64,000 bases of DNA. Origin: Paraspadella gotoi. Its lineage: Eukaryota; Animalia; Chaetognatha. This document shows, one piece after another, positions 18,791-52,101 of this stretch. Made by a program: the position numbers and the translations under genes. Every line of letters begins with the position of its first letter. The first letter of the stretch is position 1. The notes under the pieces were generated by a model that was given only the letters and a program-made list of their open reading frames with translations, ran no database searches and was not told the DNA's origin. The DNA lies in the NCBI GenBank assembly GCA_051294375.1, contig CM119265.1, positions 13,012,124-13,076,123 of the forward strand. The letters run 5' to 3'.

Positions 18791-19168
18791 AACCAAAGTC
18801 AAGTTGATTGAAAAGGCCAGACTTTTTTATTCAAATTTAAAAAAAGTGTAAAAATTTTATTTATTTCACTATATATTATATTTAATTAGTAAAGTGTAGT
18901 AAAAATTATAAATTTAACTTTAATGAAAATTATAAAAGTGAAGAACGAACAACATTATACTATTGAACATTTATATATAAAAAAATTTTATTATAAATTT
19001 TACAATTATGCAGTAGGCTACATTTATACTACTACTAATCCAATAAATGTTAAAATTTCAAAATATTTTTTTGTAGGATTTTTTTTGCAGAATTGGATTC
19101 GTCATGAAAAGTTGATATGGAGAAATATAACTCTTTTTCAAAAATTCTTTCATTAAGTTGATCAAATA

Positions 19169-22518: not shown

Positions 22519-22567
<49 letters not shown>

Positions 22568-23948
22568 TCCGCTTACAAATGTTGCATTGAGAAAAAAAAC
22601 GACTCTTTCCAATATTGTTCAGTTGTTACTTACAATGTTGATTAAGTTTATACCACAACCCAAATTGGGCCGGACGAAGGATTGGTTAGAAACATCTCCA
22701 CTCATTTCTAATGATAAAAGAGTGCCATTTTGGCAACTTTTAAGAATAAAAATTATGTCCATTTTTGTCCATTTTTACTACGACTTCTGATTTGAATGCC
22801 AAGGAAAGTTGAGAAAATTTTTTACTTTGGAAATCCGTTCTTCCTTATCTTCTTTACCCCTGGGTAAATTTATTTGCTTAATTCATTTATAGTTTGCCTA
22901 TAAATTAATTTTAAAGTTAACAAGTCAAAAAGTTGTAGTTTCAGTCTTTATCCTAATTTGTTAAACAAAAATAAATCAAATTGGTTCAAATTAACAGAAA
23001 ATATAGCCTATTGAATAAGCTTTTAACACCTACATAATTTTTAAAGACAACTTTTAATTTGTGACTTTTTGTGACTTGCATTTATTTTTGATAAAAAGAA
23101 TATTTTTAACTCATTTATTAATTTTAAAAGTTGAGGTTCATACTAACGTTGATAAAACAAAAAAAAAAACCGCATCCTTTTAAGCCAATGGAAAGCGTCA
23201 GGACTTGTTTTTTTCTCAGAATCTGTCGATTTACTAAATTTCGTAAGCAACCATAATTGAAATATAATCCTCCATTACCGTTAATTTTCTTTCTTATTAT
23301 GCATATTAAAGATTTTCTTTGATTTGGCTCAATGTAAACATAGTGAGAGGGAAGACGAAAGGGAAAATTAGAAAAGGAGCAGGGGAAAAGAAACGGGAAG
23401 AATGAAGAAGAGAAAAAAAAGGTGAGGAAAGTGCATGAGTGGCAGAAAAAGGTAGGGGCCGAAAAAATTGTAAGTGACAGCGTGAGAAGTAAGGGAGGAA
23501 AAAGGAATAGGAAAATATAAAGAATGAAAAGAAAAGAGGAAAAAAAATTGCATCAGATAATGTGGCGTCTTGTTTATAATCTTTTGTGTAAGTAAAAGAC
23601 AAGGAATTCCATCTTTAAAAATTATCTGTACCATAAAAATTCAAACATACTTATTTCTAAAATTAAACAGTTAATGAGATTAGATTGACAATCATTGAAG
23701 AAATCATGTCTTACCGTATTTTTAACTCATAGAAATTTACATGGGAAGTTCTAAGTGATAAGATGGAGATAACTTGAGACTACCGTTTTTCTAAAAGAAG
23801 AAAGCTTCGTAATTACCAATGAGATCAAGAAATATGGTAATTTTTGAAGTTCAGATTTCGTTGTCTAAAAGACTCCGATTGTACCAGGATGGAAAAAAAA
23901 GTGTCGCGGTTACTTTCCAGTTATTTTTCGGAATTTTAATGTGAGAAT

Positions 23949-25267: not shown

Positions 25268-28200
25268 ATGATAGGCATGTCTTTTATACACGTTCAGGTT
25301 CGAACCCTTCGACGAAATCCCATCCTTGGGGAGGGGCGATGGTTGGATGATTGGCGCAGACAAGCGAAGGAACAGACGAACCAACTGAGACGACCTGAAC
25401 CAAGGTCGCTTTCTGTCCTAAGAGCGGACAGGAATTTAACCCAAACGGAGGAAAGAACAGTCGAAGACCAGGCGAGTAATTTAATTATAAGGGATTAAAA
25501 AGTAAAATACTGAAGTGACAGTGATAATTGTTATGTGTTAATGACAGAACCGTTCAATATAAGCAGTCCCTGAGCTTCGGATCAGGCTGTAACACAATGT
25601 TACAGGGGGGGTTAAGCGCCCCGTCCCTCTTAATTGCTAAGCAGCCACCGGGCTAAAACCCCGGACTTTTGGGTAGGGAGGTGAATGACTTGCCTCCGGC
25701 ACCAATGGCCGCTGATGAACGGTTGGTGGATTTTAGTCCACCATAATACTAAACAATAAATATGCCAAGTTATTGTAATGACGAAATATCGGTATGTGTT
25801 GGATATGACTTCCTTCCATCAGCGCCGTGATAGCGCATTGGACTATCCCTTCATTTCCGAATTCAATGATCTCGGATGCTGGCCCTGGTCGGAACGGTCC
25901 TTGCAAAATAGTACCAGGCCAGTTAAAGCACTTGTAGCAAGCCTTCCAGAGTTTTAGAAAGCAAGGAAAATGACGGTAAAATCTACATCCACTGAGCAGT
26001 GAGGACACTATGTGTGTGCGCTCTCAACACAGTAAAAGGGGCATTACGACGCCCTCCTCTCGTTCACTTCATTATTTTAGAAAGCTCGCTCGTCATACTA
26101 GTTTGAAAACCTTTATTAAAATAATCTTTTGAAGAATGCATTCGTGTAAATAAGTAAAAAAAAACTCGCAGGTTGCGGATTTTTCCCAACCACCGGTTCT
26201 CGATGGTTTTTTTCTGCTGAAGTTGTGTTGCGTCGATGATCCGGCGGATCTTTGCATTGTGGACATTTCACACAAAGGTCTACATGAAGCAAACAAGGAG
26301 GATCTAGTTCTTTTCGTCAATGTGGCAATCATAAACGCGGGTAATTTTAATAAGTAAAAAAAGACGTTCTTGCTACGACATAGATAACGGACTCAGGGTA
26401 TCTGACTAACAGGTTGGCGGCTTCGGGCCTCATTGTCGCCTCTTAGCATAGGCTGGGTAAAGTAGTTCATAATATAATTATACTAGTACCGTCTTGCTCT
26501 ACCGCCGGGATTGAACCCGGAACCCACGGTCAGGATGGTGCGTTAGCCAGCTAAGCCACTGCAACGAGGTTGAATTTATATTATATTAATTTGTAATTTG
26601 TTTTTCTTTGGTGAGGCGGTTTCAAGTCTCCGCCACAATGTTTTAATTGAAATTACGTTTGAATTATCTTGAACCCAAAATGAAACCAACCAATTGAAAA
26701 GAATATGGTATTCTGTATTCTATATTTTTTGATCCTCAAATATTTTTTATGGTTCTGCCAGGTGAGAATCTCCTTCCCCTCGGGATTTTCGCAGGATTCC
26801 CTAACTTGCGCGAACTGGAGGCTCCTTTGAACGAAATTCGCGAGATTCGATTGGAAAACGATTCATTTCCGTTCCTCGAGACACTTGACTTATCGTTTAA
26901 TCGCGTGGACGCAGACCACATCCGAAACCTAGGCGAGATCGAGACGCTCAAGCGACTAAAACTTGGCTTCAACGGCCTCCTCGCTATTCCCGTCGAGACG
27001 ACACGGCCAGTCGCGCTTGAGAGCGACGATGACATCATGACTCGGACGAAGGAGCGATTCCCGAATCTTGAGGAGCTCGATCTGGACGGAAATCGCTTGG
27101 ACGATGGAGTGTTCGAGGTTCTTGGACGGATCAAGAAATTGCGAAAATTAAATCTTAGTCAAAACGAGATAACATCGGTACCCCATTTACGCGTGTCGAG
27201 AGGGAGTTGCGTCAGAATGACACCTGAAACCGCTGAAAAGAAGTTGAGCGAAGACGCGTCGCCGGAAGAGAGGTCAGTGTGTGTGTGGGAGTACCGAAAC
27301 GTTGCGAACTCATTGATAATCATTTTTACTATAATTACCAGCTCTCGTCACAGTTCGGCTAGCGGTATACAAGCGCTGCAGGGCAAATCATCTCGAACGA
27401 GATCATCAAAGTCGCGGGTTCGATCTTCCGGTCACCAATCGCCCACCCAAGACGAACCGGCTCATCCGGAAACGGCGACGATGGAGCCGGAAGCTCCACC
27501 ACCCACAGTCGCAGAACCCGCCTCGGTTAAGGGTAAATTATTCAATAATAGCCAATCATAGTTACCTTCAGGTTTGATGGCTTAATTTCTGAAAGATATA
27601 CGCTTTTAAGACGCGACCGAGTTGTCGGAAGCCGTTGCCGACGATCTACTCAACAATTCTTCTGTCGCGGCCGTCATAGTTGTTACCGATGTCGATCGGG
27701 TAGACGAAAAGACAGAACTCGACGAAGACATCTCGCATAATTTAAACGAATTGGAAATCAGCGAGGATGAAAATGGTTTTCATGTGAGTTTCACCTCTAT
27801 TGGAATTTTCCTCAAGTCTTCCATCACGTCACATATTATATATATTACCATATTTGGTGATGTTCCAATTTCTTACCTGTACGAAATCGGAAACGCCAAA
27901 TATGTCGAAAAATATGTTTTTGTTCGGATTCCGATGAGTTCGGGTATTGAATTAGAATAAAATCAAATCTGGGTTCGGCATGTGGCTGCAGGCAAAATCC
28001 ATATCATTTGTCTTTATTGATATGGTATCCGTACTTGATTGATCACATAAATGAAATGCACTGCATCGAACTTCTGTCTTTTCGTTTTATTCCTTTTAGT
28101 TTTAGGATTTCCTGAAGGTGGCGCTTGCAGTCACTTAGTTTGGAGGTTTTCTCCTGTCTTAACAAATGAGCAACCAAGTATAGGCAAATTATACGCAATA

Positions 28201-32324: not shown

Positions 32325-35300
32325 TCAAACTTTTAGCTGTGTCGCGCTCTGCATCAGTGTTTTCAGTCCCGGCATGAAGGAGCTTATTTCCGCAAAGTTT
32401 CCTCCCCTCACGATCGCCGCGTAGACTTTCAGGCCCCTCTGATAATCTTTGGCGCTGATAGCAGCGGCCATTTGCTGCAGCCCGCCAAACACATTGGGGG
32501 ATACTGTTCCTTCGCGCAACTTGTCTGCAAGTATTTCTAGTTTCCTGCCAACATCGTCCAGTTTACGCTTCATAACTGGATTGGTGGATACGTTTTGGCA
32601 AAGCAGTAAAGCCCCAGAAAACGTGTCGTACAGCAGTTGATATTCCGGAGCGAGGGGATTCTTAACAACAAGAGCCGGTGATTGAGATGGAGCAGGAGCT
32701 TCCACTGGTGCGGATGCGAGGCCGTTCGACGACGGTGGAGTCCAAGCATTAGACGAAGGTGGAGTCAATACAGGTGCAGACGGAAAACCAGCCTGAAGTG
32801 GAAATGCTGGAGGGGTTGGGTGCTGCATGGCATAAGCCGCGGGGTTAAGAACCCCTGGTGGAAGCTCCATCGGTGTGACTGGTCCCGTTGGCTTATCTTT
32901 TGCTTTGCGAAATTGGGAATTAGGATTAGGATTCTGAGCCTGAGAAGTTGGAGGGTCGTTCCAACCAAGATTCGCTGGGGGGGCCTCTTGAAACGAAGGC
33001 ACGGCAGGTAAAGAACTGATCGCCGCATGTGTCTCCGTAGCAAATTGCGTAGTGGAATGAATCGTTGGCAGAGGAGGAGGCACGAACGAGTCAACCGGTT
33101 TCGCTGAAAAATTAGTTTCCAATGGTGTCGGTCCGGTAGCCGTGGAAGGAGAAAACATTCCCGTCTGATGGGTTATAGGAAACATCATGGGTACCGAAGG
33201 CATAGCATGATCGAGCGACGATGTCGTTAAGGATGTTTGGTTGGTATGGCTCACGGATGAGTATTGATATCCTAAACACAATGCGCATCATGAAACCAGG
33301 TAAACTTGTATTAAGGGGGCATAACCTTATAAACACCTTACCTCCACTGTTTCCCATAATTTCCGGGTGAGCTGGGTATTTAGGGCGCCCTTTTAATCCA
33401 GTGTGTTTGCTGGAAATTCCCTCTGTCTTGTTTTGCATTGGGACCGACGGTGGCTGTGGGAAAGTGCTAGTCGGTTGCATTATAGGTGCTGGATTAACAA
33501 AGGGTATCGGTTCTGGAGGTTGCCGAGTCTCTTGGCCGAGACTTCCACGCGAAGACCGCGACATTTGCCTCGATCGCGAGGAAATGGAGTGATGATGAGT
33601 GGCTTGATGGTAAGAGGGTTTTGATGGCGTCATTGAACTGGGACGACGATTCAATCGTAGCGCCACAATCACGCGCTCCTTCAGATTTCGCGCTTCTTTT
33701 CCGTCGCAGATATCCAGGCAGGACAGAGCCAACTGTAACTGACCTTGAGATATTAAGAGGTTAGCGTAACGAGTCAAAAGCGCCGACAAGCGTTCAGAAG
33801 AAATGTTGAGGTTTGCAAGCGCCTTGCTGAAAACTGTAATCTTTTCAACTTGAGAATGGAGTTCGAGGCATGTTTTGCTCTCGCAGAGCTTTTGAAGAAG
33901 CTCTATGACCTAAAAGAATTAATTTAGAATTAGCTGATAAATAATGAATAGAGAAAGATACAAATTGTTCGAAATTTCAGGAAAAATCTTGGATAAATTG
34001 CTTTAAAGAAAACGGCGAACCTTAGACTCGTTTCCTGCACAAATGTAGCACAGACAAGCACACGTAAAGAGAGCTCTGTCGTTCTCAAGCCGTGACGCGA
34101 GGATATTTCCCAGAGGAACCAATTTTTCTACGCCATTGGAAGAATTTGCTAAAATTCCGGCCAATGCCTGACGCCAGTTATCCAAGTTGCATGATGTAAT
34201 CAGTTTGTCCCAGTCTTGGTCGAGAACTATAGACATCACGCGCGCAATCTGCTTGTCCTAATAAGGGAAAACCATAAATAGAGCCAATAATAATAGAGCC
34301 AATCTAAGTTAATGGGTTGGGTCAGAAGTTTCTAAAATAGCTTTATGCACGAGTACTTGATTTTTAAATATTTATTTACAGATAGGAAATGTCAATCCAT
34401 TTTTTAACATTTTAATCAGATTTAGATAGTTCATAAAAAGTTGTCCGCAAAAATTCTTCATTAAATATTTTGATGATACGTGGGGCAAAATTACGTAAAA
34501 CATTAAAAAATTAAGACCATCATCATTTTATGGCAACAGGGAGACATGTATTGCCCGAGGTGTGAGGCATCTCCCGACTGCTGGCGCTCAGGCTTTGGAC
34601 CACCCCAGGTCACTGGCGTGTTTATGCCGAAATCACACTAACCAGCGTGACCTCACAGAACTCTCGGTTGGTGAACGTGTACTTAGCTGTCAAAGCCAAT
34701 GGGACGAGCTGAGTTTCACCAAGCTATACGGGAAGCGAATTTAGAATTCGCCACAATATATTAGTTTTTGCTAATTTTCAGTAATAAAAGATCAAAATTT
34801 TGAAAAGTTTTAATTATATTTGTTTTTTGTGCTTTATTTTGTTGTATGTTTTTGTTTTTTTTGTAAGCTTTGTCAGAATTTATCAAAAAAAAGATTCTAA
34901 CAAAAAATATTAAGAGTACAGTGATCTCGCCAGACGTTACTATCAAAGAAAATTAATAAAAAAGTTTAAAAAAAACAAAAACGAATGATTGATGCGATAA
35001 CAAATTATTAATATAATAATAATTACCCAGGGGTAAAACAGAACACTTGTTAATTTTTAAAAAAATGCGGCCCCAAGGAGACGAAAGTTAAAAACAAATA
35101 CATCAGCCAATAGCGGGGACACTTTCCTAGATATATCACCAGAAAATTTTTTTGAAAAACATTTATTATGTGAAAATTTTGTTCCGCACTATCCTAAATA
35201 ATAAATTGAAAGATGATAAAGAGACTAGTATGTGGATGCATACATTTAAAGAGATCTGTAATGTATATATCCTGATATGCTTGAAAAGATGGAAATTTGA

Positions 35301-38300
35301 TATAAAAATATATAAAAGATTCAAATTACCCCCAAAGGATTTGCATCTTATCATCAAAGCTCACTATAATATTTCTTTGCTTGCTCTCATAGATTTACTA
35401 GACTCATAACATAACTGATTATGTAAACAGATGCGTTTAAGATAAAAAAGTACAAAACTAATAGTCATGATATACAAATAAAAAGTATAATAAAATTCAG
35501 CCGCCAGCTATTTCATATCATTTATTATTTTTTATCATTAAAGTGAGAAATAACATTCATTAACATATGAAAAAACATCTTAATATCAATCAAAAAAATT
35601 ATGTACTGGACTCCAAACCCTGTCACCAAATTTGGTCAAGGCAAAATATACATTTTTAACTGCTAATTTTTTTTAATAAGATTATTTTGTTTTTTATTAA
35701 AATATTCTAGGGCTTAAACTAATTTAATGTCAATTTTAAGCAAAGTTTTATATTTTAAAAAAGATTTATAGTTCAAAAATTAATTCCATAATTAAAATAC
35801 AGAAGGCTTCATATTATAAAATGTGGTACCCCTTTTTTATGACCAGAATCTGTTCCCACCAAACTACCCGATCGAATTTAATGAATTTTTACATTTAGAG
35901 TGCTAATGACTATATAAATGGAATTATCGAAGCGAATTTTGATATTCAACCCCTGACAAGAGATACAGGGCCCTGGGGGTGAACCCCTGGGGGGCCAAAA
36001 AATGCTAAAACTTTTTTTTTCATTTTTCAAATTTTTTTAGTAGCATCAGGTGCATTGACGTTTTAAACATAAGAAAAAAACCTTTTAGAACAAAAATTGA
36101 TAAATTTGCAATAGCATGGTTGAAGATGCATGGTTCATCGTTTTACTTCCAATTTTCGCAAATTATTCCAAATCTGACTAACTGCTGATGTTCATGAAGC
36201 TAAAAATTAAGGTAAATGAATATTTTTGAGGTAATAAATACATTTTTGTGGAAGAGTAAACGTCTGTACAACTGTTCAAAACAAAAATAATAAAAAATCA
36301 GCGGTCAAATATTGAAATTCGCCTCGATAGTTTTATTAGTATTCACATAGGGATCGTTCATTCCAAATTTCAATAAATTTGGTCCAGTAGTTTTCTCGGA
36401 ACGAGTTCTGGTCCTTTATATTTAATTTATTATCAATTTGTTTGAATTTATTTAAAATAATGTTTCTCTTCTTAATTTTAACAAATTGAATCATAAATTT
36501 ATCAGTTATATTTGTCTTTTAAAGCTACTTTTGTTAATTAAAAATTGCCTACTTTTATTCAGTTAACTACTGAGTAAACCAAAAAATTGTCTATTGCCTA
36601 CTAAAAAAAAAAATCTTTATCCAAGTTCACAGTATATTAAATACAGTATACTATTTAAAAATTAGGTAAGAAAAATAACCTGCTTTCGTTTTTTAAGTTT
36701 TTCTAAGTATCTTTGGCGGGTTCTCAGAAGCAATGCTTGATTTCCTGATGATGCCAGAACTAGAGCATCGGCTAGTCGGTCGTCCGCGAAGCAAATGTCG
36801 ACAGCAGTTTCCAAATCACCCACTAAAACAGCCTGCACCAACAATCCTTCTACGGAATCTAAGTCCGAAGGAATGCTAATTTCCGCAGGTTCCAGGTCTT
36901 CTTTGTCTAAGAAAATAGGAATAATACCAATTAAAGCTTCCTGAGACCCTCACCAAACACCTAATGATACCGTTATCAACACGAAGATCGACGTGCAAGC
37001 CTTCCTTAACGTCATCGATTCTGGAATCAGCGTCGAAAGCATGGGTGATGTTATCAAACGCCGATGTGGCAGGGTTTCGTGACGAGGATGTTAAAAGGTT
37101 ATCAAAATCCGACGTTACTTCGTCATCGGCTACGAAAAGCGCCGAAGCAGGTTTTTTAGAAGCGCCCTCAGGTGAACCATTTTCGTCAGAAAACTAACGG
37201 TAATTAATAAAAATTATATGCAAATTGTACTACTTACCAACTATTGTAGTAAAAATAAGAATAATTGATTATTATTAAAATTTTACAAGACATTTATTAT
37301 TTAAGCTAGAATCCTAATGTAATGAAACCTGATCTCTATCTTCAATCGAAGGCTTGTCATCATGAACCACAGTAGCGCCGTTGTCACTTCCACTGGCGCT
37401 GTTGGCCTCATTCTCGCTCTGTGGAGCACTCGGTTTTCCGGACGAGACAAAATCGAATGAACTTGTGCTGCCGTCTTCGCCCTAATGAAAAAAGTATTTA
37501 TATTTATGGATATACTATTATAAATTATACGTAAACTTCTTATGCGGTGCACTCAGGAGCGGGATAAATTTATAAAGCGGAAAAATTGAACACAGCAAGT
37601 AAAAAGTGACACACAGAAAAATAAGAGTAGGCCTATAGTAACTTAATAGCACTACCCGTTGGATACGACTTCCTTCCATCAGCACCGTACTAGCGCAGTG
37701 GGCTAACGCTCCATCACTAAACCTATTCGGAACGGTCCTTGCAAAAGAGTGAGGAACCGGTCAAAGCATCGGTAGCAAGCCTACCGCCGGATCCGAAGTT
37801 CCGGAAATCTCTCAGACCGAATGGGTACAATAAAGATGGGGCATCCACACCAACAGAGTGGCACGGCGACCCTCTCCTCTCGGTCACTTCAGGCTGTATC
37901 ATTTTTAGAAAATTCTTAAGGACCATACAGGGTTGGGACCTTATATCGAGACAAACCTCAAGGTCCTGCCCTGTCTGGACGATTTAAGATACAATAATAA
38001 AATGAGTTGAAAATGTTTTATCTGGCTCTGTACTTTTAAAATACATTTTTAAGCAACTACAAGCCGTTGTGGATGTTTTCAAAATAGTCGTTTTTATGCG
38101 CGCATTGTATTGCACATGTTAAAAGCCAAAATTATTAAAAATGTTTTCGGTAAGCATTTCATCACTATCCAAAATAAACATATTTAATCTTTTTCAGGTA
38201 AGATAAAATTTTAGGAAGACTAACAAATATGCTTAAATTGTTAAATACTTAATATATTTTTTACCTTTTTAATGCTTTTATTATGCATTCAGAAATCTTA

Positions 38301-41300
38301 CATGATTAACCTAATTATCTGACAATATCGTTAATAAATTTGTTGATAAAAGTTTTAATAAAAATTAAACCATAACAGTAAATTACACAAATCTTACCTG
38401 CTTACTTCAAAATTTTTTAAACCAAAATACAATGTAAACATTGCCAGAAGCATTATTATAAGTATTTATAATATTTATATTTATAATTATTATTTAAGTA
38501 TTTCCAAAAATATTTTTAACTGTTATGTCTTAGAATGAGACTAAAAAATAAGTTTTCAAACATTTTTCTTCCACACCGCGCGGAGAAAACCGAGCAGTTG
38601 CCTTTGCTGCATCAAAAAAAAAGTATTATATTAATAAAATAGAATTCGTAAGATCTTTGGCTGGCATCGATGGGAAAGCATCAGAAACCTTAGAGAAGGT
38701 TTTGGTTACCCTGACATTTATAATATTTTCAAAATTAGTCATGAACGATTCATGAAACGTTTAACTTTGACGAAAAATAAAGTTTTGTCTGATTTCTATG
38801 AAAATATAGAAATAATCTCGTAGCTTAGTTTTCCTTCACGTTAACGTCTTAATTCTGTTTTTTATTTGTTGCTGATGTATGCTACTGTATCATTATTGAT
38901 ATGAAATAAAATTCTCATTAAAGAATTTCAAAAATATTAATACATCGTCTAAAAGCGAAGAGAGTATTATACAAATATTTCAGATTTTAAAAATCATTAG
39001 GGGTTTTAGAATAATGATTTTTAAAATTTTGTCTCGATGTATGGTCCCAACCCTGTATTATTATATCCATCAGTCAAACCAGAGCTTCTGAGGTGACTGC
39101 ATAGAAGTGTTCTCATTTTCATGCTTAAAAATATTTAATTGGTATGTTTTTCTAAATCTATTGAATGTGGTACACACTATATAAATGTCTGTTATTTCCA
39201 AAATCGAAGAACTGGCAGGGAAGGCGTTAATTATAGTTAGCAACTTGTAATTAAAAATTTGGTTACAACTTGAACGCAGAAAAAGAAAATATGGATTAAA
39301 GCCCTCAGAATGCACGGTTATTACAGAGAACATGAATTTCGACTCTCCAACACGCCGTCTGAAATTTTTCTCAATCCATTAAGTTAACACGAGGAAAAAT
39401 GCTCAAGAGGTTAAAACTTCATTCTCATATAAACAATCTATGCCATAGACTATGGCAAAGATTTCAACAGAAGGGGTGGGGTTAATGGGTTTTTTAAAAT
39501 TATTTCAAACGAAACTTGTATTAAAAGAATGATATCTTTTACTTTTTACAAAAAAGTTTTGACCAGAATACCGAAAAGTTAAAAAATAACTACTTCCTCA
39601 TGTGGCGACGCTTAATTTTAAAATGAATAACTGGGAAATATTTCTATTTTTGATAATAAATTAATTCTTAGCTTAACCATGAAATAAACTAAAAAAATTT
39701 CAGACCTCAATCCTTTGTCATATTCTTGTTTGCTCCTAGTAATTATTAAAGCAAGTTTCTTAGCGACGATTACAAAAAATATTTTCAATAAGAATATTTT
39801 AAATATTAAATATTTCAAATTAAAAGGACAGCAGTATTTTTTCTAGGATTGAGGACAGCGTTTTTGTCATGGAGGATCAGGAAAGATAATTACAGGTCGC
39901 TACTAATTAGCGTATCCGCATGCTAAAATCTGACCGAGTATAAAACTGCAAACTTTCTCAATGAAACCAACCTTCGTTTGTTGTTGGTGTTGCAATTCTA
40001 GGTTTGGTTCGTATCCTAAATGTCCCTGCATTATTATCTCAACCTCCTGGTCAGAGTCATAAAATCCGGGAGGCTTGCAAGATTTATCTACGGGTGCAGA
40101 TTTGACCTGGACATGCGAGTGAGATTGATCTAAAATTGACTCTCCTAAAAATCTTTTCCGCATACATGGTGACAATTTTATAAGCGCCGATAAAAAAAGC
40201 TGTCATTTTCAAACCCATGAAGATTTTTTCAATGTTAACTATGAATTTAAAAGTAAAAACTCATCGTGAATTTCCTTTCGTTTCGTTATTTTGAATTAAT
40301 AGAAGACGTTATTGTAGCAAGAAGTACATGTTTCGACTTTAGACATACAAGCCTTCATCAGCGTCAAAATTGTTTGTGAATTTTTTGAAAAAATTTTGTG
40401 CAAAGGGGGGAGAGAGAGAAATAGAGAGAGGTCAAAGTTTCTAACGAAACAGGCGGAGACCTTTGCGCAGGCAATGGGCAAACGATGCCTATCTTTCAAC
40501 TGCAGCAACTCATTTCCTCTCTGTGGAGTGAGCGCCCACCAAAAAGGCGACTGCAGGAGGAAGGGAAGGAGTCCACACTCCACAACTCATGTCGCAAAAG
40601 TGTCAAAAATTGACAACCACCCATCTCGCCAGCAGGTGAGAAGAGGGCAGTCAACAGGCGTACCAGGCCAGAGACATTAGGGTAGCCTTTGGACTCTTTC
40701 TGCAAGGAAGCCTCCCTAGTCCAACACATACAGGCTCAACCAACATGACCTCTCATTTGAAATGAACTACAAATTATTCTGCTACAGATTTGAAAATCGT
40801 CTCTGATTTTTAAACTCACTTTTTTTAAGATTTGTTCTTTCAGTAAGTTTTCTGAAAAAATTTGAAATAAAATAAATTAATATTATTATCTTCTGAAATC
40901 CCTTTCATATCTAAAGAGAATGATGTACTTACGAATACTGAAATATAAAATTTAACCGGTCCAGCTTTAATTTAATTAGGATACTCAAAAACGAGACATC
41001 TTTTCAAAAATAAATAGTTAAAGGGCAAATTTAAGATTTTTATCAAATTGTGATATTGTGGCGGTATATACGGAATATACCGCCACAATATACTATATTT
41101 GACTCTTAATTGAACCAAGGCTGGGCAACTTAATTTTTATGTTAGAGCTTTCGTAAGTATATCATTCTCTTCATATTTTTAAGGGCTTTCTGAGGATATT
41201 AATATTGTTAATATCTTAATAAAATGAATACTTAAATAGTGATAAAAGTTAAAAAGAAATCTTAAAAGCATAAGGATCGTCGCAATTGCAATATATACAT

Positions 41301-43632
41301 GGTGACAATTTTACAAGCGCCGGTAGAAATACGCTGTCATTTGCAAACCAGTGGTTATTTCATTGATTTTCAAATTTAGTTGAGTAGAAAATATTCAAAC
41401 TATTTATGTGTTAAATTTTATATTGATCAGTTAAGATATGCCTTGACAATGAGTGGAGAAAGTTGGCTTGTAAAATCGGGTTTCATTTTCCAACTCACTT
41501 TTTTTAGATTCAATTTTTTTTTCTTACTTTCATTAACAAAGTTTGATTTTATTTTGCAACGAATTTTATTTGCAAGAGCAGACATGTTTCGGCTCACAAT
41601 ACGAGCCTTCATCAGCGCATATGAGTTGTGAACTTGATACAAGTTTTAGTTAAAGAAAAGAGAGAGAGAGAGAGAGAGAGGGAGAGGAGAGAGTTAAAGG
41701 TTTCCAACAAAGAATTGAGTAAGGACAGTGATCAGTGGTGAGGACAGATTTTTAAAGTGGCTAGTTTGAATAAGTTTTGAAAAGAAGTGAAAATTGGTGA
41801 GAGAGACAGAGAGAGAGAGAGAGAAAAATAAATAAATAATTACATTTGAGCAATATACAACATAGATAAAGATAATGACTGTTTAATACAAATTGAAAAT
41901 TAAAAATTGAAAAGTTGAAAATTGAAATTGAGAAGTTGAAAATTGAGATTTTAGAGGGATAGATAAGTAAAGATTGTGGTGAAATATAAGAATTAAGAAA
42001 GAGCTTACTTTCAGAAAGTTTTCTGAAGAAATTTGAAATAAAATAATATTAATTTTATTATCTTCTGAAAGCCCTTTCAAATCTAAAAAGAATGACGTAC
42101 TTACAAATACTGTAGTATAAAATTTAACTGGCCCAGCTCTAATTTAATTAGGATACTCAAAAAACGAGACATTATGGCAACAGCCGGGTTGCCTGTGATG
42201 CCCATTGGGATGGGGCATCTCACTGTTGGCTTTGGGGGCTTCCGACCCTCAGTGACGCCTCCAGTCACTGGCGCGGTTACCCTAGGACGGTCTCGCTTTG
42301 CCAACGCAGAGGGAAGTCGTTAGGACTGTGGATGGAACACTACGCCTGGGATGGTGTGTTCCCCCTCTGAGCCAATGGATTTGGCTGAAGGATGGTGGAC
42401 GTGAGGCGGTGTGAATATACCGCCACAGGATCCCGGGCCAAAACATCACGCAGGTTCCTCAAGCTGAGAGGTGTCTGACAAGACTGTTACCATAGTGGGA
42501 GAGGAGAGAGAGAGCGCGAGTTGTGGGGGCATAGGCGTTTGTCATAGCGTACCCCAGGGGCATAGGGTTTGTCGTAGCGTACCCGAAGTTGGCAGGGCAT
42601 AGGCGTTTGTCGGTAGCGTACCCTTGAGAAAGTTGCGTGTTCGATAGTAGGGCTCACCACTTATGGCAACAGCGGTCTCGCTTTGCCAACGCAGAGGGAA
42701 GTCGTTAGGACTGTGGATGGAACACTACGCCTGGAATGGTGTGTTCCCCCTCTGAGCCAATGGGTTTGGCTGAAGGATGGTGGACGTGAGGCGGTGTGAA
42801 TATACCGCCACACCATCTTTTTTAAAAATCAATAGCTGGAGAGTAAATTTATATTTATCAAATTGTGATTGGCTATCTTAAATCCTTCTTTCTCAGGCTC
42901 TTTCATGATACTTATATAAATAATAATATTTTATGTTTTAATAATTTAAACAGGTCATATATTTTGAAAAAAGATTTAAAATTTTAAATAATTTACTTTT
43001 GACACTCTTAATTGAACCAAGGCTGGGCAGCTCACTTTTTGTGTTAAAGCTTTCGTAAATATTCATTCTCTTCATATTTTTAAGGGCTTTCAAAGGATAT
43101 TAATATTGTTAATATTTTAATAAATACTTTATTTAAAAAAGAGCTAAAAGTTAAAACAAAAATTGAATTTAAAAACAGAGTTAGAAAATGAAACCCGATT
43201 TTACAAGCCAACTTTCTCCACTCATTGTCAAGGCATATCTTAACTGATCAATATAAAATTTTAACACATAATTTTAACACATCGACACACAGGAGTCAGA
43301 TCAATTCTACTGAAACTAAAGAAAGCTAGGTCTATTTATATCTGGAGAAGAGGATCAGAGGCATGGGCTATTTTTACAATTTCATGGTTTCTGCAAGCTG
43401 ATTGGTCGAGGCCGATTCCGTCTCGACCAATCATGATTCGGCGATTCCATATCGGCGGAGATTTCCCGATCCTCCGATCCGTTTCTACTTTGAGTAGGAT
43501 TTGTTATCCTGCGATGATAGTTTTAGTATTTTCTACTCAACTAATTTTTAAAATCAAAGAAATAACCACTGGTTTGAAAATGACAGCATATTTCTACCGG
43601 CGCTTGTAAAATTGTCACCATGTATATATAAT

Positions 43633-43664
<32 letters not shown>

Positions 43665-46600
43665 AATAAAAACCCGATGTTGCGATAGCAAAATCATAAC
43701 ATGCACGAATGCGATGCCTAATTTTACGAGTTCAATCCTAATTACATTTTTTTTAAATAAAAACGCAGAAAGAGAAAGAGCAAAATTGTTTTCGGACGAA
43801 TCAGCAGAAGCAGCAGGAAAAACTTTTTCATTGTCAAATAAACTGATCAGCAGACGCAGCCCCTGAGAAAAAAGAAGAAAAAAAAAAAGAGAGAGAGAGA
43901 GAGAGAAGCCAAATCGTTTTCGGACGAATCAGCAGCGGCAGCAGCAGAGGCAGCCAGAAAAAAAGAAAAATCAAAAGGCAGCAGCAGAAGCAGCAGGAGA
44001 AAAGAGAAAAAGCCCCTGCAGACTCGTTTTTTTTTCCCAGTGGGGAAAAGAGAGAGAGAGCTACATATAATTAAAAGAGAAAAGAAAGAGAGAAGGAGAC
44101 ATAAAAAATTTGTTTTTATAAAACGTAAACAAAACATAATTAATAACTGTCCTTACCCAATTTCAAGGACCTCGATGATGAGAAGCTGTATATAAATTTT
44201 CAGCTTATTACACCCAAATTTAATCATAAAAAAGGCGATCTATAATTTGGAACGACGACAACAACAACGACGACGACGCCACTTATGTGCAAAACCACAG
44301 CAAAAACTGAGTTGGAAAATGAAAGCCAATTTTAAAAGCCAACTTTCTCTCCTCATTGACAAAGCATATCTTAACTGATCAATATAAAATTTGAACACAA
44401 ATGATTTTAATATTTTCTACTCAACTAATTTTTAAAATCAATGAAATAGTTTGCAAATGACAGCGTTCTTTTACCGGCGCTTGTAAAATTGTATATATAT
44501 GTATATTGGCACTCCACCCTTCGTAAAATTAAAAATATTGCTCAACTATTTGATATTCATTTCGATTAAAATACACAAATTGTCCTTTTTCGTTACCAAA
44601 TCCTCAAAGGTGTTTTTTGGCTCAGTCTCTGCTATGAATTGGTTTGAATTTTCCCGCTGATCAAGCTCGATCTTCTCCACCCGTAATATAGAAGGTTCAG
44701 GGCATAACGAATCATTTGATTTCTCCCCGACTCTCTCGAGATCCGGAAATACGTTGGGCTTTTAAAACCGTTCGGAGATCGACAAAAAACCGATTGTTGG
44801 TTGGGGGAAAATTGAAATCGATTAGTACGTACGCCATGAGCCAATATAATTCCAAATCAGAAGCAAGAAGAGTTCGTTGATTTATCGAGTATTTTGATAG
44901 CTAGCTTATAATACAAAAAAGTAATTACAATGGGACGACTTTCAAACGATAGCTTATTGCAAATAAGAACTTATAGATCATTGCAGAGAGTAATTATTAA
45001 ACTTCAAATTACAAACGTTAAATTTTTTTTTCACCTTTTTATGATCATTCTATTTAATCGGAATCAAGTGGAACTAGTTAATGGCTACCCTTCTAGCCGT
45101 TTTATTTTTATTCTTATCTTACTTTTTATCTTATCAAAAAGAGTAATTACATCACTGCTTCCAAATTGATAATTCCTTTGTAACCAAATTTGCACCAATT
45201 GCTCCTTCAATGAACTTTATTTGACTTAAATGAGAATTAAAGCTTAAAAGATTTTTATCCGCCAATCTACATTGTAATCTGTATTGGAGTACTTTTTTTC
45301 ATAGGTCTGTAGATTATAATTTTGTTTTACAAATTAACCAAAAAGCATCGAAAGAAGCCTTAAATCTTTTTCTTCCACGCTCACCTCTGCGGCAGCGGGC
45401 GAAGCGGTAGATCCATCAACGACACGAGGATCCGCACGTCTTGCTTCTAAAGTACGTTTGACATCAATCGCCCGGGCAGCAAGAGCGCCGTCCCCGTAGC
45501 CCAACAGTTTAAGCCACTCGCCACGAGGGTCTTGGGCGAAGTGTGCGCCAACGAATCGCCAAAACTCGCGGTCAAAATCGACGGTTTCGGAGGCTGCTTT
45601 AGTGGCGCAAAAGTCTCGCAAGGAACCGGCTTGAACTACGTTCCTAAATTGAATCGCGCGGTCGACCAGCTCCTCTTCTGTGATCACCTAAAAAAAATAT
45701 TACATTAGAATAGTACACATTATGTCTTGAATAAAATGGAAATTCGGAATTCTATATAGTATTAAGCATCTAAGAAAAACCAACCTGCGATATAACGACT
45801 TTTGATTCTTCCGCGAAGGAAACGAGCTTCCCGCCAAAGGCAAATGAGACACCCTGTGGACATCGAAGCCACTTGGGCGGCTTCTTTAAAGGCGGCACTA
45901 CCACTTTCTTTGGTGTCAATTGAGGAACTGGTGTAGAAACAGAGCCGAACGCTTCCGAGATGTCTACTTGTGGCTTGTCGGACAATTCATGAGTGCCACC
46001 CATTAACGAATACAAGCTAAGAAATAGAATTATAGCTTAGGTGCGTGGTAATCGAGAATCATTTTTTTAGTACTTATTTTTTACTATAAGACTGACTATA
46101 TAGTATATACCATATAGAATTTATGCCCCAATCTCATTTTTATCATACTGTGGCGGTATATATTCACACCGCCTCACCTTCGAGTTTATTCAGCCAATTC
46201 CAATGGCTCAAAGGGGAAACGCACTATCCCAACCGTGCGTTCTAACCACAGTCCTAACGACTTCCCGTGTTGTCAAAGCGAGACCGTCTTAGGGTAACCG
46301 CGCCAGTGGCAGAAGGCCAACTGAGATGCCAGATCCCAATAGGCATCACAGGCAACTCGGCTCTTGCTATAATACCCAGTTTTTCACCCACTACTAAACT
46401 AACCTTATGTGTCCGTCGAAGGCGCAGCTGGAAATTATTGCAGGATTTCGAGGGCACCACTGGACGTCAAAAGACCATTGCGATGACAGGGGCATCTCAT
46501 AGAGGACTTCGCCCCCCTGGACATTCGCATTAGGATCCCAGCAAAGTATGCGGTTATCTTTGCCACAGGAAAGAAGTAAGTCCGGGTCAAGAGGACACCA

Positions 46601-49600
46601 GGCAATTGAAAGCACCCCTAACAAAGTGTTTTTAAATGGTATTTGGAGATGGAGAAATGTACATGTATATGAGACTAAATTGAGAAAGAAATTACCTCTT
46701 TGATGGCTCTCTAGTGATCTAACCGGAGAAGTGGCGAATCGAAGATCCCATATTTGAATAACGGGGGAATGATCGTCTTCAGATGCTAACGCCATCTGGG
46801 TTGCAACTTCTGGATGCCAAGACACTTGCTTACAACGTAGACGAGAAACAGAGTCGCTGACCTGAAATAATGTGGATAATGTGTTTAAGGCTTTTTGTGG
46901 GCTGACCATCCATAAATCTTATCTTCTGTAGCCAGCCATAAAACAGGTCCAGTCTTAAAACCAGAATATTGTAAATTATATGAGTCAGATTTCATGTTCC
47001 AATCCAAACGATTGTCCCTAAATTGTAAAGCAATAACCTTTATGATTGGTTCGTTCTTTCGAAGATCCCAAACTATACAACGATTGGCAAAGGTACTGGC
47101 GAGAATGTGTTGCACTTGAGTGTTCCATGCAACAGAAGTAACGTCATCTGCCGGCTGCAAATGATAAATAAATAAATAAATATTGATATGTTTTATTTAC
47201 AGAAATTTTATTACCTTTCCTGAATCCTGATACTTCAAGAGTAACAATAACTAACAATATCTTATAATTAAGGCGAAAAATGGCTGAGTATACTCACCAT
47301 AGATTTAGATCCAGGAGCCATTGCGTTAACCGGATTATTCAAATCCCAGAGTAACACTTCCGACTCTGTAGCCCCAGAAGCAAGAAGGTTTGGTTGAAAT
47401 TTGTTGAAATCCAAAGCCCTTACCGCTCCTGGGATTAGCAAAAAATATAAGTAAAGTATAATATAAGTAAAGTAAAGGAATATTGGGACTAAATAAGTAC
47501 AACTAGATATTATGTACAAAAGGCTTCATATTATAAAATGAGGTACCCGTTTTTTGTGACCAGAATCAGTTCCCACCAAACTACCGATCGAATTTCATGA
47601 AATTTTATATAGAGTCATGGAACTCTCGAGGCGAATTTTGATATTCAACTCGTGACAAGAGATACAGAGCCCTGGGGCTAGACCCCAGTGAAAAAAAAAT
47701 TTTAATTTTTAAAATTGTTTATAATATCAGGTGCATTGACGTTTAAACATAAACTGAATGATTGATGCCGATAACATATGATTTTGTAATAGTATTGTGT
47801 ATATAATGTTTAATTAGTATATATGGATGTGAATAATATTAGTTACTGATAGTAATTGATGATTTAGTATAGTAATTGATGATTTATGTAATAGTAATTG
47901 ATGATTATGTAATGTAATGTGATTGATTTGTAATGTAATTGTGATTTTGTAATAGTAATTTGATGATTTATAGTAATTGTGTAATTGATGATTTATGTAA
48001 TAGTAATTGATGATTTATGTAATAGTAATTGATGATTTATGTAATAAATTGATGATTTATTGAATAGTAATTATGATTAATGTAATAGTAATTGATGATT
48101 ATGTAATAGTAATTGATGATTTTTGTTAATAGTAATTGATCATTCATGTAATAGTAATTGATGATTGAGGAAAATTTGAAAATTACTTGTTTCACCATTT
48201 TCTATTTTTATATTTTATGAAGGATGTAGTATTTAATCTAAAATTGTCGCGGTTTTGAAAAGTCGGTTAATTTCAATTGTCAAATATATTTATTGGCCGA
48301 TAAACTTTGTTGAAATCCAAAGCCCTTACCGCTCCTGGGATTAGCAAAAAATATAAGTAAAGTATAATATAAGTAAAGTAAAGGAATTTGGGACTAAATA
48401 AGTACAACTAGATATTATGTACAAAAGGCTTCATATTATAAAATGAGGTACCCCGTTTTTTGTGACCAGAATCAGTTCCCACCAAACTACCGATCGAATT
48501 TCATGAAATTTTATATAGAGTCATGGAACTCTCGAGGCGAATTTGATATTCAACTCGTGACAAAGAGATACAGAGCCCTGGGGCTAGACCCCAGTGAAAA
48601 AAAAAAATTTTAATTTTTAAAATTGTTTTATAAGCATCAGGTGCATTGACGTTTTAAACATAAAACGAATGATTGATGCGATAACGAATTATTGATGTAA
48701 TAGTAATTGATGTAATAGTAATTGATGTAATAGTAATTGATGTAATAGTAATTGATTAATGTAATAGTATTGATGATTTATGTAATAGTAATTGATGATT
48801 TATGTAATAGTAATTGATGATTTATGTAATAGTAATTGATGATTATGTAATAGTAATTGATGATTTATGTAATAGTATGATGATTAATGTAATAGTAATT
48901 GATGATTTATGTAATAGTAATTGATGATTTATGTAATAGTAATTGATGAGTTTATGTAATAGTAATTGATGATTTATGTAATAGTAATGATGATTAATGT
49001 AATAGTAATTGATGATTTATGTAATAGTAATTGATGATTTTTGTAATAGTAATTGATCATTCATGTAATAGTAATTGATGATTGAGGAAAATTTGAAAAT
49101 TACTTGTTTCACCATTTTCTATTTTTATATTTTATGAAGGATGTAGTATTTAATCTAAAATTGTCGCGGTTTTGAAAAGTCGGTTAATTTCATTGTCAAA
49201 TATATTTATTGGCCGATAAAAAAGTTTTAAAATGTAATGTGACCTCCCTAAGACTAAATAAAAAGATTATTTTTCCACAGCATAAAATTATTTAATACAA
49301 TCAAATACTTTCAAAAGAGATTATCTCCAGCTGTCTTCACCTCTTTTTGATCAAGAGGACTTTTCTCACATTATTATTACTATTAAATCTCTGACATAAT
49401 ATTTTTTATCAGATGGCAAAAAATGGTCCTTGGCAAGCAGTGAAAAAGATTGATCTTTTATAAAAAAAACCAGGCTCGAGTTGTTGTTTCATAATGTGAT
49501 GATACATTATCTTTTATTTTAACAAAATCTTGATTTTTGTTTTTTTTTGGATATGTTTTATATTTGGTTCTGATAATACATTCAGAGGTAAATAAAAAAA

Positions 49601-52080
49601 ATCTTAATAGCATAAGGATCGTCGCAATCGCATAAGAAAAATCTGGATTGACGATAAATTTTGATACTAAAAAAATCAAATTTGAGAAAAATGAAGAAAA
49701 TTTAAAAAAAAAATAATAATAATAAATAAAAAAAATAAAATAAAGTATAATAAATATAAAACAATAAAATAACTTATTTTCGAGTTTAATTTTTAACAAG
49801 TGCTAAGTCTGGAGAACCATTATTGAAGGTACTTTTGTTTTACTTTTAGCGAGCAGTTTGATCGAATGCGACCTCTCTAAACACTGTCAACATTCCCAGA
49901 CAAAGGACAAAGTGAAACTTGAATCAGACTGACGAAGTGAAGTAAAGACTAAAGTGAAGTAAAATGAAATAAAGTAAAATAAAATAATAAAGTAAATATA
50001 TATTAAAAAAAAATATTATTCTGATTGATATTTAAAATATTTAGAAAAAAAAATCCACAAAAATCTCGGATGTATTTTGGGAATAAATGTTTTATCTAAT
50101 AATTCAATTCGGGAAGGGGAAGTTAGTGTTGTCTTCTGGAAATAGAGGGAGCATCTATACAACACAAGGTTAGATTACAATCTGTCCTAGTAATTGATGA
50201 TTGATGTAATTGTAATTGATGTGATGATAATCAATGATTATTAATCATTCATTGATGCGATGATAGTCATTCATTTAACTTCAAACGCTGATGTTTATGA
50301 AGCTGAAAATTAAGATAAACTATTATTTTTGTGGTAATAAATACGTTATTAAATACGTTTTTGTGAAAGAAACGTCTTCAACTGTTAAAACCAAAAATAA
50401 TTAAAAAATTCGGGGGGCCCATATCTCGCCTCGGGTCAAATATTGAAATTCGCCTCGATAGTTTTATTTCTATTCACATATGGATCGTTCATACCAAATT
50501 TCAATGAATTTGGTCCAGAAGTTTCCTCGGAACGTGTTCTGGTCACGAAAAACGGGTAGGGAAGACGGGGCAAGACGGGAACATGGGGTAAGATGGGGTT
50601 TGCTAATTTTAGCAACATAAAGTATATTCAATCCGTTTTTCTTTTCTAAATAGAAGCAACTACTCATCTTAGGATGACTCAAGAACTTTCCAACCGATTC
50701 CTTTACATTTTCAAAAATTATGCTAAAATATGTATCTACGTTATGAACGTAGTTTTCACTTTCAACATTTATTGTGCAAAATTTTACAAATTTAAATTTC
50801 AGTTTTTCGTATTTGGGGTAAGAAGAAGAAAATTTTCTTGGGCAAGATGGGGATGCACAAATCATTTTATCTTTTGGATTGATGTAGCTAGGTAGTTAGA
50901 AGGCCGAGAAACTACATTAGAAAACTAGTAGATGTCGTTGGAATGAAAAATCCATGGAAAAGGCGTGATGGAGAAATGGGCGCTCCAAAGCTTCCAGGGA
51001 ATTCAACATTCGATTTAAGACAAATCAGACAAATCAGACCCAATTAAATTTGTAAAGCAATCAACTAAAAACAATTATATAACATGTAAAAATTAACATT
51101 TAATCAATGCTGCTAGCTGGATAATGCGAAACACGTAAGACTTGACCCAAAAGCTACAGATTTAACACACTGGACGGGCTATGAGCTACAAATTCTCAAG
51201 AGCCATCGATGTTAAAGGATTTGATATCCTTGTGTTAGTTTTCGTGTTTGGTTTCTTTTTGCCAATGAATGGCAGTTACTTTGTTTCATGTTATGCTATG
51301 TCCGAATGCGACATTATTTTGTCCATATTAACAAATTATCAAAATGTTCTGATTTTCTATGGCAAAGTTGCATTTTTGTTGGTGCTGTATTGTTTTTGTT
51401 TGAAATCGCATTTTTTAAAAACAGTTTCAGCTCCCCATCTTGCCCTGCCCTTCTCCCCATCTAAACCCCATCTATAGGGAGTTTGACCAGTTTTTTAAAA
51501 AAATTCCAAACTTTATATGGTTAACTTTATATGGTTCACAATTATTGAAACTCACAAGGCATAAAAAATGGTAATGGTGTTTTCATCTGTAGTTCAATGT
51601 AGGATGGAATAATAAACTGTTTCAAACATTGCATTCAGAAAAAAGATTGGATAACGGATATCCGATACAGGGGGCATCAAAGATGATCCTGTGAGTGACT
51701 TGCAAGAATCATATCTAAAACAACAAACCTGTGTGTTTAATGCATTTGTAAAGAATATCCGACGACCCGGCTAGAAGAGATTCAGGATCATAGAGATAGA
51801 TGGATCCTTGTTCGCCTCCGGCGACCAAGGTACCCAATTGGCCTTTTCCGTGATTGCCCCAAACTAGTTTGTGAAAGCGCTGGTCAGAGGGTGATGTAGT
51901 TTGTCGAGGCATATCTAGGTCAGATTCCCCTAAGTCGAGTCGATATATTTCAATAGCGGCCGTCGTGTTGAAGGTGGCATCTAGCTGTTGGGCCGCTGTT
52001 CCCACCGCCAGCCGAATAGGATGGTGATCGGAGGGCGACCAAGCCACATTCCCAGTCCGCAAAATTTCTTTGACTTTCAT
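32325..52080 (-). CDS. SEC31: COPII coat protein Sec31 (multi-exon; introns up to ~8 kb)
   Basis: [59 protein letters not shown], proline-rich linker, C-terminal [20 protein letters not shown]. Confidence 0.97.
34529..34755 (-). mobile_element. Structured solo-LTR-like element, family A1
   Basis: TATGGCAAC...GCGAATTTAGAATTCGCCACA on +, flanks ATTT/ATAT; homologous to 5427-5683. Confidence 0.65.
37634..37891 (+). mobile_element. Structured solo-LTR-like element, family B
   Basis: TATAGT...CACTTCA, flanks GGCC/GGCT, AATAAA at 37829; blocks shared with 25774-26071. Confidence 0.65.
37928..39055. mobile_element. Tc1/mariner-type MITE
   Basis: TA-CAGGGTTGGGACCTTATATCGAGACAAA ... TTTGTCTCGATGTATGGTCCCAACCCTG-TA. 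Confidence 0.8.
40321..40365 (-). ncRNA. Minimal type I hammerhead ribozyme
   Basis: Minus strand GACG-CUGAUGA-A-GGCUU...AAGUC-GAAACAUGUA-CUUC. Confidence 0.6.
40440..40771. mobile_element. Structured LTR-like element distantly related to family B
   Basis: GC-rich, multiple hairpins; AAGGAAG..TCCAACACATAC shared (inverted) with 25792-25815; ends CTACA, flanks AGTT/AATT. Confidence 0.45.
41057..41087. mobile_element. 31-bp palindromic mini-element made of two family A ends
   Basis: ATAT-TGTGGCGGTATAT ACGGA ATATACCGCCACA-ATAT. Confidence 0.6.
41578..41618 (-). ncRNA. Minimal type I hammerhead ribozyme, best-preserved copy
   Basis: Minus strand GCG-CUGAUGA-A-GGCUC guauugu GAGCC-GAAA-CAUGUC-UGC: intact core, perfect 5-bp stem II, GUC triplet; same sense as SEC31 pre-mRNA. 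Confidence 0.75.
42173..42812 (-). mobile_element. Miniature LTR retroelement (TRIM-like): LTR 42812-42662 (internally deleted), tRNA-Trp PBS 42659-42627, non-coding internal region, LTR 42427-42173
   Basis: Direct terminal repeats differing by 2 substitutions and one ~104 bp deletion; 2-nt spacer then TGGTGAGCCC; flanks ACAT/CCAT; empty site GAGACATCTTTT seen at ~19555 and ~40993. Confidence 0.75.
46149..46371 (+). mobile_element. Solo LTR of family A2
   Basis: TGTGGCGG...TTGCTATA with perfect TSD ATAC; colinear homology to the LTRs at 42173-42427. Confidence 0.75.
47401..49220. repeat. ~0.9 kb tandem duplication containing a 22-bp minisatellite (ATGTAATAGTAATTGATGATTT)n and part of SEC31 exon 2
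   Basis: 47401-48304 repeated at 48307-49220; first copy is indel-rich. Confidence 0.85.
50554..51460. mobile_element. MITE (pogo/Tigger-like ends)
   Basis: GGGAAGACGGGGCAAGACGGG / CCCATCTTGCCCTGCCCTTCTCCCC imperfect TIRs. Confidence 0.5.
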
Positions 52081-52101
52081 ATTTATAGCGATAATTCAAA
52101 T

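Follow-up and report, generated by a model that had tools for sequence, protein, structure and literature searches.

How would a 640-bp non-coding retroelement that carries a tRNA-type primer site and lacks a polypurine tract (PPT) copy itself? An insertion at 42173-42812 raises this question in the stretch of Paraspadella gotoi DNA analysed here (the window, 64 kb). The insertion is read in sense on the minus strand and ends in TG...TA on that strand. We consider it probable that it is a decayed copy of an abundant, twister-bearing LTR retrotransposon, and that its family replicates in the manner of a plant LTR retrozyme, likely through a circular template.

The first-pass annotation had described two LTRs around a 234-bp interior at these positions, and a re-reading of the letters gave the same layout (Table 1). 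As it had said, the LTRs differ by two substitutions (42350/42735 and 42379/42764) and one deletion, which follows the first 12 bp and measures 104 bp; the three repeats of about 28 nt are also present, at 27-30 nt. Its assignment to the non-autonomous LTR elements likewise held, and the 4-bp target-site duplication (TSD) with empty-site paralogues marks the element as integrase-type: the empty site is preserved in two host-repeat paralogues, near 19555 and 40995, and comparison with them reveals the TSD ACAT/CCAT. Among the features that define a TRIM, the element has the size (below 1 kb), the lack of coding sequence, the two LTRs, a TSD within 4-6 bp and, with the L138 tRNA-Trp described below as reference, a primer-binding site adjoining the 5' LTR; it lacks the PPT adjoining the 3' LTR. 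The core folds no better than shuffled sequences on either strand.

Table 1. Coordinates of the element, its parts and its relatives in the window
Feature	Position	Strand	Description
Target-site duplication, left	42169-42172	+	ACAT
3' LTR	42173-42427	-	255 bp, intact, highly structured (z = -3.3)
P5-opened twister (predicted)	42305-42225	-	In the intact 3' LTR; every part in P5-opened order
Twister P5	42305-300/42230-225	-	Predicted
Twister P2	42296-293/42276-273	-	Predicted
Twister GA and T1	42292-288	-	Predicted
Twister P1, palindromic	42287-280	-	Predicted
Twister UAA	42279-277	-	Predicted cut between 42279 and 42278
Twister T2	42272-271	-	Predicted
Twister P3	42270-250	-	Predicted
Twister P4	42248-246/42237-235	-	Predicted
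Twister L4	42245-238	-	Predicted
tRNA-derived promoter remnant	42330-42374	-	In U3; homologous to the A/B boxes of the 26.6-kb relative
TG-end hairpin of LTR	42402-42427	-	Present in 5/5 relatives folded
Core	42428-42661	-	234 bp
PPT position	42428-42441	-	GC-rich, two 6-nt palindromes, no purine tract; no variant at or above 8% in 14 nt
AG microsatellite	42497-42514	+	Length variable; pyrimidine on the sense strand, hence not a PPT
Three repeats	42527-42623	-	27-30 nt; third rare in the family
Primer-site extension	42627-42649	-	Bulge, then 17 nt complementary to T loop, T stem and variable loop of tRNA-Trp
Primer-site core	42650-42659	-	10 nt, exact complement of tRNA-Trp 3' end (with CCA), locus L138
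5' LTR	42662-42812	-	151 bp; ribozyme from P1 onward and most of U5 removed by the 104-bp deletion
Target-site duplication, right	42813-42816	+	CCAT; 3/4 letters same as left
Solo LTR	46149-46371	+	74% identical; TSD ATAC/ATAC; ribozyme P4/L4 deleted
Diverged solo LTR	5427-5683	-	Complete predicted twister fold 5552-5490, compensatory changes; TSD CTGC/CAGC
Diverged solo LTR	34529-34755	-	Ribozyme broken by deletions; TSD ATTT/ATAT
Third relative (26.6 kb)	26370-26637	-	TG-end hairpin, intact A and B boxes, decayed twister; 3' end undefined

The insertion host is an AT-rich, MITE-like repeat with long inverted copies, itself nested and rearranged, which occupies 19154-20746, 40837-41530, 42008-42172, 42814-43637 and 44302-44508. 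The element sits between Sec31-like coding pieces on its own strand; the Sec31-like gene lies in pieces over about 20 kb (32325-52095, minus strand), and the 34.5-kb solo LTR is also found between its pieces, in sense orientation. Among RRP8 homologues, the named ones are mostly from animals and do not exceed 58%, and four unnamed ones reach 72-77%, which points to an invertebrate host with no closely related named species. Elsewhere, the window holds a duplication of about 900 bp (47397-49220, 93% identical) with an internal tandem array, and two inverted copies of a repeat of about 1.4 kb (11621-13136 and 22565-23883, about 82% identical).

To place the locus within its family, we sampled other copies from contigs of public runs aligned to 500 bases of the element (9,412 contigs in run X1, 3,097 in X5, 567 in X9 and two in X10). 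X9 and X10, which may be RNA runs, are not taken as a sign of expression, nor the two X10 contigs as a sign of a second host. The LTR is left at exactly 42427, into unrelated AT-rich flanks, by 109 X1 and 105 X5 contigs; at its other end, 89 X1 contigs leave at 42173, 59 at 42172 and 70 at 42171. In X10, one contig runs from an intact LTR with its ribozyme (one difference in 191 nt) straight into the primer site; in X9, one contig spans the junction of core and 3' LTR. A search for the LTR-internal-LTR layout in other copies, proposed as a check in the first-pass annotation, thus found both LTR-core junctions, on separate contigs of which none spans a whole second copy, and the layout is a family trait. 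The third repeat of the core is uncommon in the family, the depth of X1 contigs summed per position, which is not taken as copy number, being 1,673 at 42611-42626 against 89,722 at 42631.

The copy at 42173-42812 is a decayed member of this abundant family and not its founder, with private letters at 42442, 42450, 42544 and 42631 that set it apart from nearly all other contigs. The insertion had been called young, which applies only loosely: against it stand the mismatch in the TSD, the 104-bp deletion and the four private substitutions in the 234-bp core. The claim that it is the parent of the family A2 solo elements failed, since these are either 74% identical or, like the solos at 5427-5683 and 34529-34755, beyond the reach of BLASTN except for 12 bp; with identity of 74% or less, they are older relatives rather than descendants. 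All three solo relatives have 4-bp TSDs, one exact and two agreeing at three of four letters. No autonomous partner was found among the run contigs or in the window. Contigs that match the element from 42632 onward and diverge before it (13 in X1, four in X5, two in X9, one in X10) suggest a sister family with the same LTR end and extended primer site. This putative sister family, whose loose ends before 42632 occur in runs X1, X2, X5, X9 and X10, is a candidate autonomous partner or sibling TRIM.

Minus-strand priming has a candidate site. The tRNA-like stretch at 42627-42659 ends in CCA and lies 2 nt from the LTR. A T-arm pattern search returned 17 viral and 120 genome loci, and 36 tRNAs, three of them tRNA-Trp, were called in a total of 146 loci; as the pattern was taken from the element, the T-arm match exists by construction and only the match to the acceptor end is independent. 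By that measure the tRNA-Trp of locus L138, which is a eukaryotic gene but not known to be that of the host, was the best of the 36, with 10 nt exact against 7 nt for the runner-up. Its predicted pairing energy is -47.8 kcal/mol over the extended site, compared with -22.0 kcal/mol for the acceptor part alone. Measured against this tRNA, the earlier proposal of a tRNA-Trp-type primer site 2 nt from the LTR, with pairing that reaches past the acceptor stem, was borne out. No variant at or above 8% occurs in 42632-42661 among the run contigs. The honeybee tRNA-Trp end (PMC10886601, Fig. S2) would mismatch the site once, at position 7. ARAGORN called no tRNA in the 64-kb window, and a metagenome scan with the 18-nt LTR/primer-site junction returned nine loci, all chance matches of at most 21 nt. 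L138 (positions 1-417) is itself a eukaryotic contig in a bacterial metagenome-assembled genome, in which a gene that resembles 5S rRNA by eye lies directly upstream of the tRNA-Trp.

Pairing of the primer with both the acceptor stem and the T arm is described for Ty1 and Ty3 (PMC5371799); here the tRNA is a different one, the two parts are adjacent and a 3-nt shortfall lies between them. We also considered the three core repeats as binding sites for the 5' half of the tRNA and rejected them: L138 ranked first, second and first of 36 for complementarity to that half, a weak signal, and comparison with shuffles was not significant (p = 0.18, 0.36 and 0.09).

Second-strand priming would be less conventional. 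The first-pass annotation had seen no clear PPT, and the same is true of other copies, in which 42428-42441 is invariant at the 8% level: only six of the last 15 nucleotides before the 3' LTR are purines, and the core has no sense-strand purine run of at least 8. The missing PPT is therefore a family trait. The T-run found in its place is a private feature of this copy, as nearly all other contigs have a different letter at 42442. Candidates for second-strand priming are the GC-rich 14-mer at this position, which is conserved, and the hairpin that adjoins it at the LTR terminus. A 31-bp mini-insert at 41057-41087, flanked by ATAT on both sides, consists of two TG-end LTR termini of the family set head to head with 13-bp perfect inverted arms; it may be a fold-back or deletion product that became integrated, and as such may bear on second-strand priming.

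The feature that distinguishes this LTR is a predicted ribozyme. The first-pass annotation had neither this fold nor the tRNA-derived segment described below, and both alter the probable mechanism. The lead was a weak Rfam twister match (15.2 bits, E = 3.6), which was then parsed against the published anatomy, and no hammerhead was matched in the element up to E = 10. The intact LTR holds a complete predicted P5-opened twister fold on the sense strand, with compensatory changes between copies; all parts by which a type P5 twister is recognised (P2, P4, T1, T2, UAA, GA, L4 and the P5-opened order) are found in its sequence. A descriptor built on published twister anatomy (PMC5408937, PMC8501958) matched twice in the 64 kb, at 42305-42225 and in the solo at 5552-5490; each match falls in a copy of the LTR and shares the strand of the primer site. 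Sixty shuffled windows gave 0.05 matches on average, and none of 5,000 shuffled LTRs matched. Since the descriptor was written after both sites had been recognised by eye, this is a test of rarity and not a blind discovery. A relaxed form gave one extra match, at 16789-16863, which is no more than chance would give (0.73 matches per shuffled window).

Comparison of the two folds shows that five of 21 pairs changed on both sides, two on one side and 11 not at all, while three are unpaired in one copy; two of the three pairs of the T1 pseudoknot are among the compensatory changes. The 26.6-kb relative, for which Rfam gave no match, has the strands of the T1 pseudoknot swapped (26493-26489 and 26427-26420) in a fold that has decayed. 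Within run X1, variation at or above 8% affects none of the 74 twister core positions, two of the seven in the P3 loop and 11 of the 122 upstream (Fisher p = 0.0075). The 52 nt that follow the ribozyme are equally invariant, and the core compared with all other LTR positions gives p = 0.023. Rfam scores lie far under the gathering thresholds, at 15.9 of 67.2 bits for the P1 model and 14.7 of 37.6 bits for the P5 model, the latter in the solo at 5552-5490, which aligns over the full length of that model. P2 contains a C-A mismatch adjoining the active site; P2 defects are reported as tolerated in twister ribozymes. Type-P5 twisters (RF02684) share with this fold the strand order, the UAA cut site, the GA, both pseudoknots and the YNNNAAGC loop. 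The fold departs from RF02684 at three points: it has a P3 hairpin, which is missing from the Rfam P5 model; its P1 is a palindrome of 8 nt and not a long hairpin; and its T1 is other than CCC/GGG.

The palindrome has a possible function. The 8-nt P1 is self-complementary over all four pairs in each of the four copies that retain it, and the outer pairs differ among them; the calculated energy is -5.6 to -11.0 kcal/mol for the homodimer compared with +2.5 to +4.7 kcal/mol for the hairpin. As the inner YUAG is conserved, the palindromy does not count as four independent events, and given the outer pairs its chance is 14%. On this model, cutting may need two ribozymes paired through P1, which would favour transcripts with two LTRs over solos. 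The copy at 42173-42812 would not cut its own 5' end, because the ribozyme has been lost from that LTR. The element and the 34.5-kb solo, which both lie in the Sec31-like gene, have each lost ribozyme copies; selection could act against a ribozyme that lies in sense within an intron.

Upstream of the ribozyme, U3 contains the remnant of a tRNA-derived promoter. The 26.6-kb relative has an A box (26558-26547) and a B box (26517-26507) that agree with consensus motifs at 9/9 and 10/10 letters, and a tRNA profile also picks out its sense strand (E = 4e-4). Its tRNA-like segment is homologous to U3 of all four other LTRs (p of about 0.001 or less). The LTR at 42173-42427 does not itself match the tRNA profile, so that its tRNA origin is by homology only (p = 0.001); its A-box-like stretch (42374-42364) keeps eight of nine specified letters, and its B box is degenerate (7/10). 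A 5S-derived LTR, as in Ajax or Cassandra, was considered and set aside: the weak 5S likeness is antisense, absent from all three solos and at p 0.002-0.003 among 24 tests.

These features recall Helenus/TRIMp3 (PMC10886601), with which the element shares TRIM size, a sense-strand tRNA-derived LTR segment and an animal-type 4-bp TSD; some wasp Helenus also use tRNA-Trp (PMC10886601). The tRNA-derived segment that defines Helenus is direct in the 26.6-kb relative and present by homology in 42173-42812. Of the further Helenus marks, the primer site and the 4-bp TSD are present and the PPT is absent; the exact box A (TRGCY...YGG) and box B (GGTTC) are both missing from the LTR of 42173-42812. Judged from these likenesses, the lineage is Helenus-like, although the strict boxes and the PPT are lacking. 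Helenus as described in PMC10886601 has a PPT and no reported ribozyme, the reverse of the element with its predicted twister, and keeps a B box that the 42173-42812 subfamily has lost and only the 26.6-kb relative has intact. The word twister does not occur in that paper, and five twister-loop motifs were absent from its Helenus consensus file in a text search of the line-wrapped sequences.

In the replication cycle that we favour, the tRNA-derived promoter in U3 would start transcription ahead of the ribozyme; this promoter was presumably of Pol III type in the ancestor and is uncertain in the 42173-42812 subfamily. The twister would cut the same U-A in both LTRs and release a unit that comprises one LTR and the core, 489 nt with a core of this size; the unit would have no terminal repeat because both LTRs are cut at the same site. 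Joining of its 5'-OH and cyclic-phosphate ends would give a circle, a template that was proposed for plant retrozymes to solve the missing terminal repeat (PMC4918200). A tRNA-Trp would then anneal through the 10-nt site and the T-arm extension, the reverse transcriptase of a Gypsy-type partner would copy more than once round and so rebuild two LTRs, and the integrase of that partner would insert the product; the 4-bp TSD and the use of tRNA-Trp point to a Gypsy-type partner (PMC10886601). A bolder form of this reading would make the element the first animal LTR retrozyme and the family the first LTR family to use a twister, derived from Helenus, cutting only two-LTR transcripts through the palindromic P1, and combining a circular template with PPT-free priming; we offer this form tentatively and regard it as doubtful.

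The nearest competitor keeps the twister active and makes the template linear. The ribozyme would then form the 3' end of the RNA, taking the role of a poly(A) signal or terminator, and a cut in the 3' LTR only would leave a terminal repeat of about 110 nt for strand transfer. The element has no poly(A) signal, the only T4 run on its sense strand is peculiar to this copy, and the A-box remnant about 95 nt upstream of the cut would make such a repeat usable. Perere-3 twisters do form ends of linear retroelement RNA (PMC8501958), and cutting could be partial if the twister competes with another fold. However, an intact element has the same ribozyme in both LTRs, so one-sided cutting would need a kinetic bias, and plant retrozymes of the same layout yield circles (PMC4918200). 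We therefore consider a linear template unlikely.

It is less likely still that the element is an ordinary Helenus-type TRIM in which the twister-like fold is carried along without activity or has arisen by chance in an LTR rich in hairpins. The sub-threshold Rfam scores would fit such a view, as would the deletion or breakage of the ribozyme in four of the six LTR copies of the window and the energy of the nested twister fold: without its pseudoknots it reaches -21.4 kcal/mol, and an alternative fold is more stable at -31.5 kcal/mol. Against it stand the low rate of the descriptor in shuffled windows, the invariant core, the PPT of published Helenus (PMC10886601) and the compensatory changes that three subfamilies show in the T1 pseudoknot and in both core stems. 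An origin without integrase, as a derivative of a Penelope-like element or non-LTR retrozyme, a tandem duplication or two nested insertions, seems very improbable. Ribozyme-bearing pseudo-LTRs are known in Penelope-like elements and animal non-LTR retrozymes (PMC7761336), one LTR end is TA and not CA, and no single contig crosses another full copy; yet the ends are sharp and uniform in more than 100 contigs per run, the TSDs are of 4 bp, solo LTRs have TSDs of their own, the LTR and the primer site are 2 nt apart, and other copies show both junctions of LTR and core.

A twister-bearing LTR element replicating through a circular template, the reading that we prefer, would resemble the plant LTR retrozymes (PMC4918200, PMC7761336) in being non-coding, with an LTR ribozyme, a tRNA primer site, a 4-bp TSD and many solos. 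Of what defines those elements, a ribozyme in each LTR is represented here by a predicted fold in the 3' LTR that is deleted from the 5' LTR of 42173-42812 and present in the LTR that the X10 contig joins to a primer site. The type III hammerhead, the tRNA-Met primer site and the PPT are lacking; the element has a predicted P5-opened twister, a tRNA-Trp site and no PPT instead. Its unit would be about 490 nt compared with about 700 nt in plants, where circles are found; here they are predicted. Perere-3 T-variants of Schistosoma mansoni (PMC8501958) likewise associate a retroelement with a twister that cuts an RNA end, but Perere-3 is autonomous, belongs to the non-LTR (RTE) elements and has a single twister, of P1 type, at its 5' end, whereas the predicted twister here is P5-type and lies inside each LTR.

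In the excerpts available, animal retrozymes are described as non-LTR only, without primer site or PPT (PMC7761336); reviews and a 2026 preprint assign type III hammerheads to plant LTR retrozymes and type I hammerheads to animal non-LTR ones; and twisters in retroelements are described only for RTE/Perere types (PMC8501958, PMC7761336). No twister-bearing LTR element appeared in the literature searched, a scope that excluded most subscription journals and Repbase. If our reading is true, a twister-bearing LTR element in an animal would break the division of retrozymes into plant LTR and animal non-LTR forms, and the strategy of placing a ribozyme in the LTR would have arisen again with another catalyst. 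Twisters would gain a second genomic job besides trimming the 5' ends of RTE elements, and Helenus and retrozymes, classes that were described separately, would become linked. Such elements would also be a possible genomic source of the twister-bearing circular RNAs seen in transcriptome surveys.
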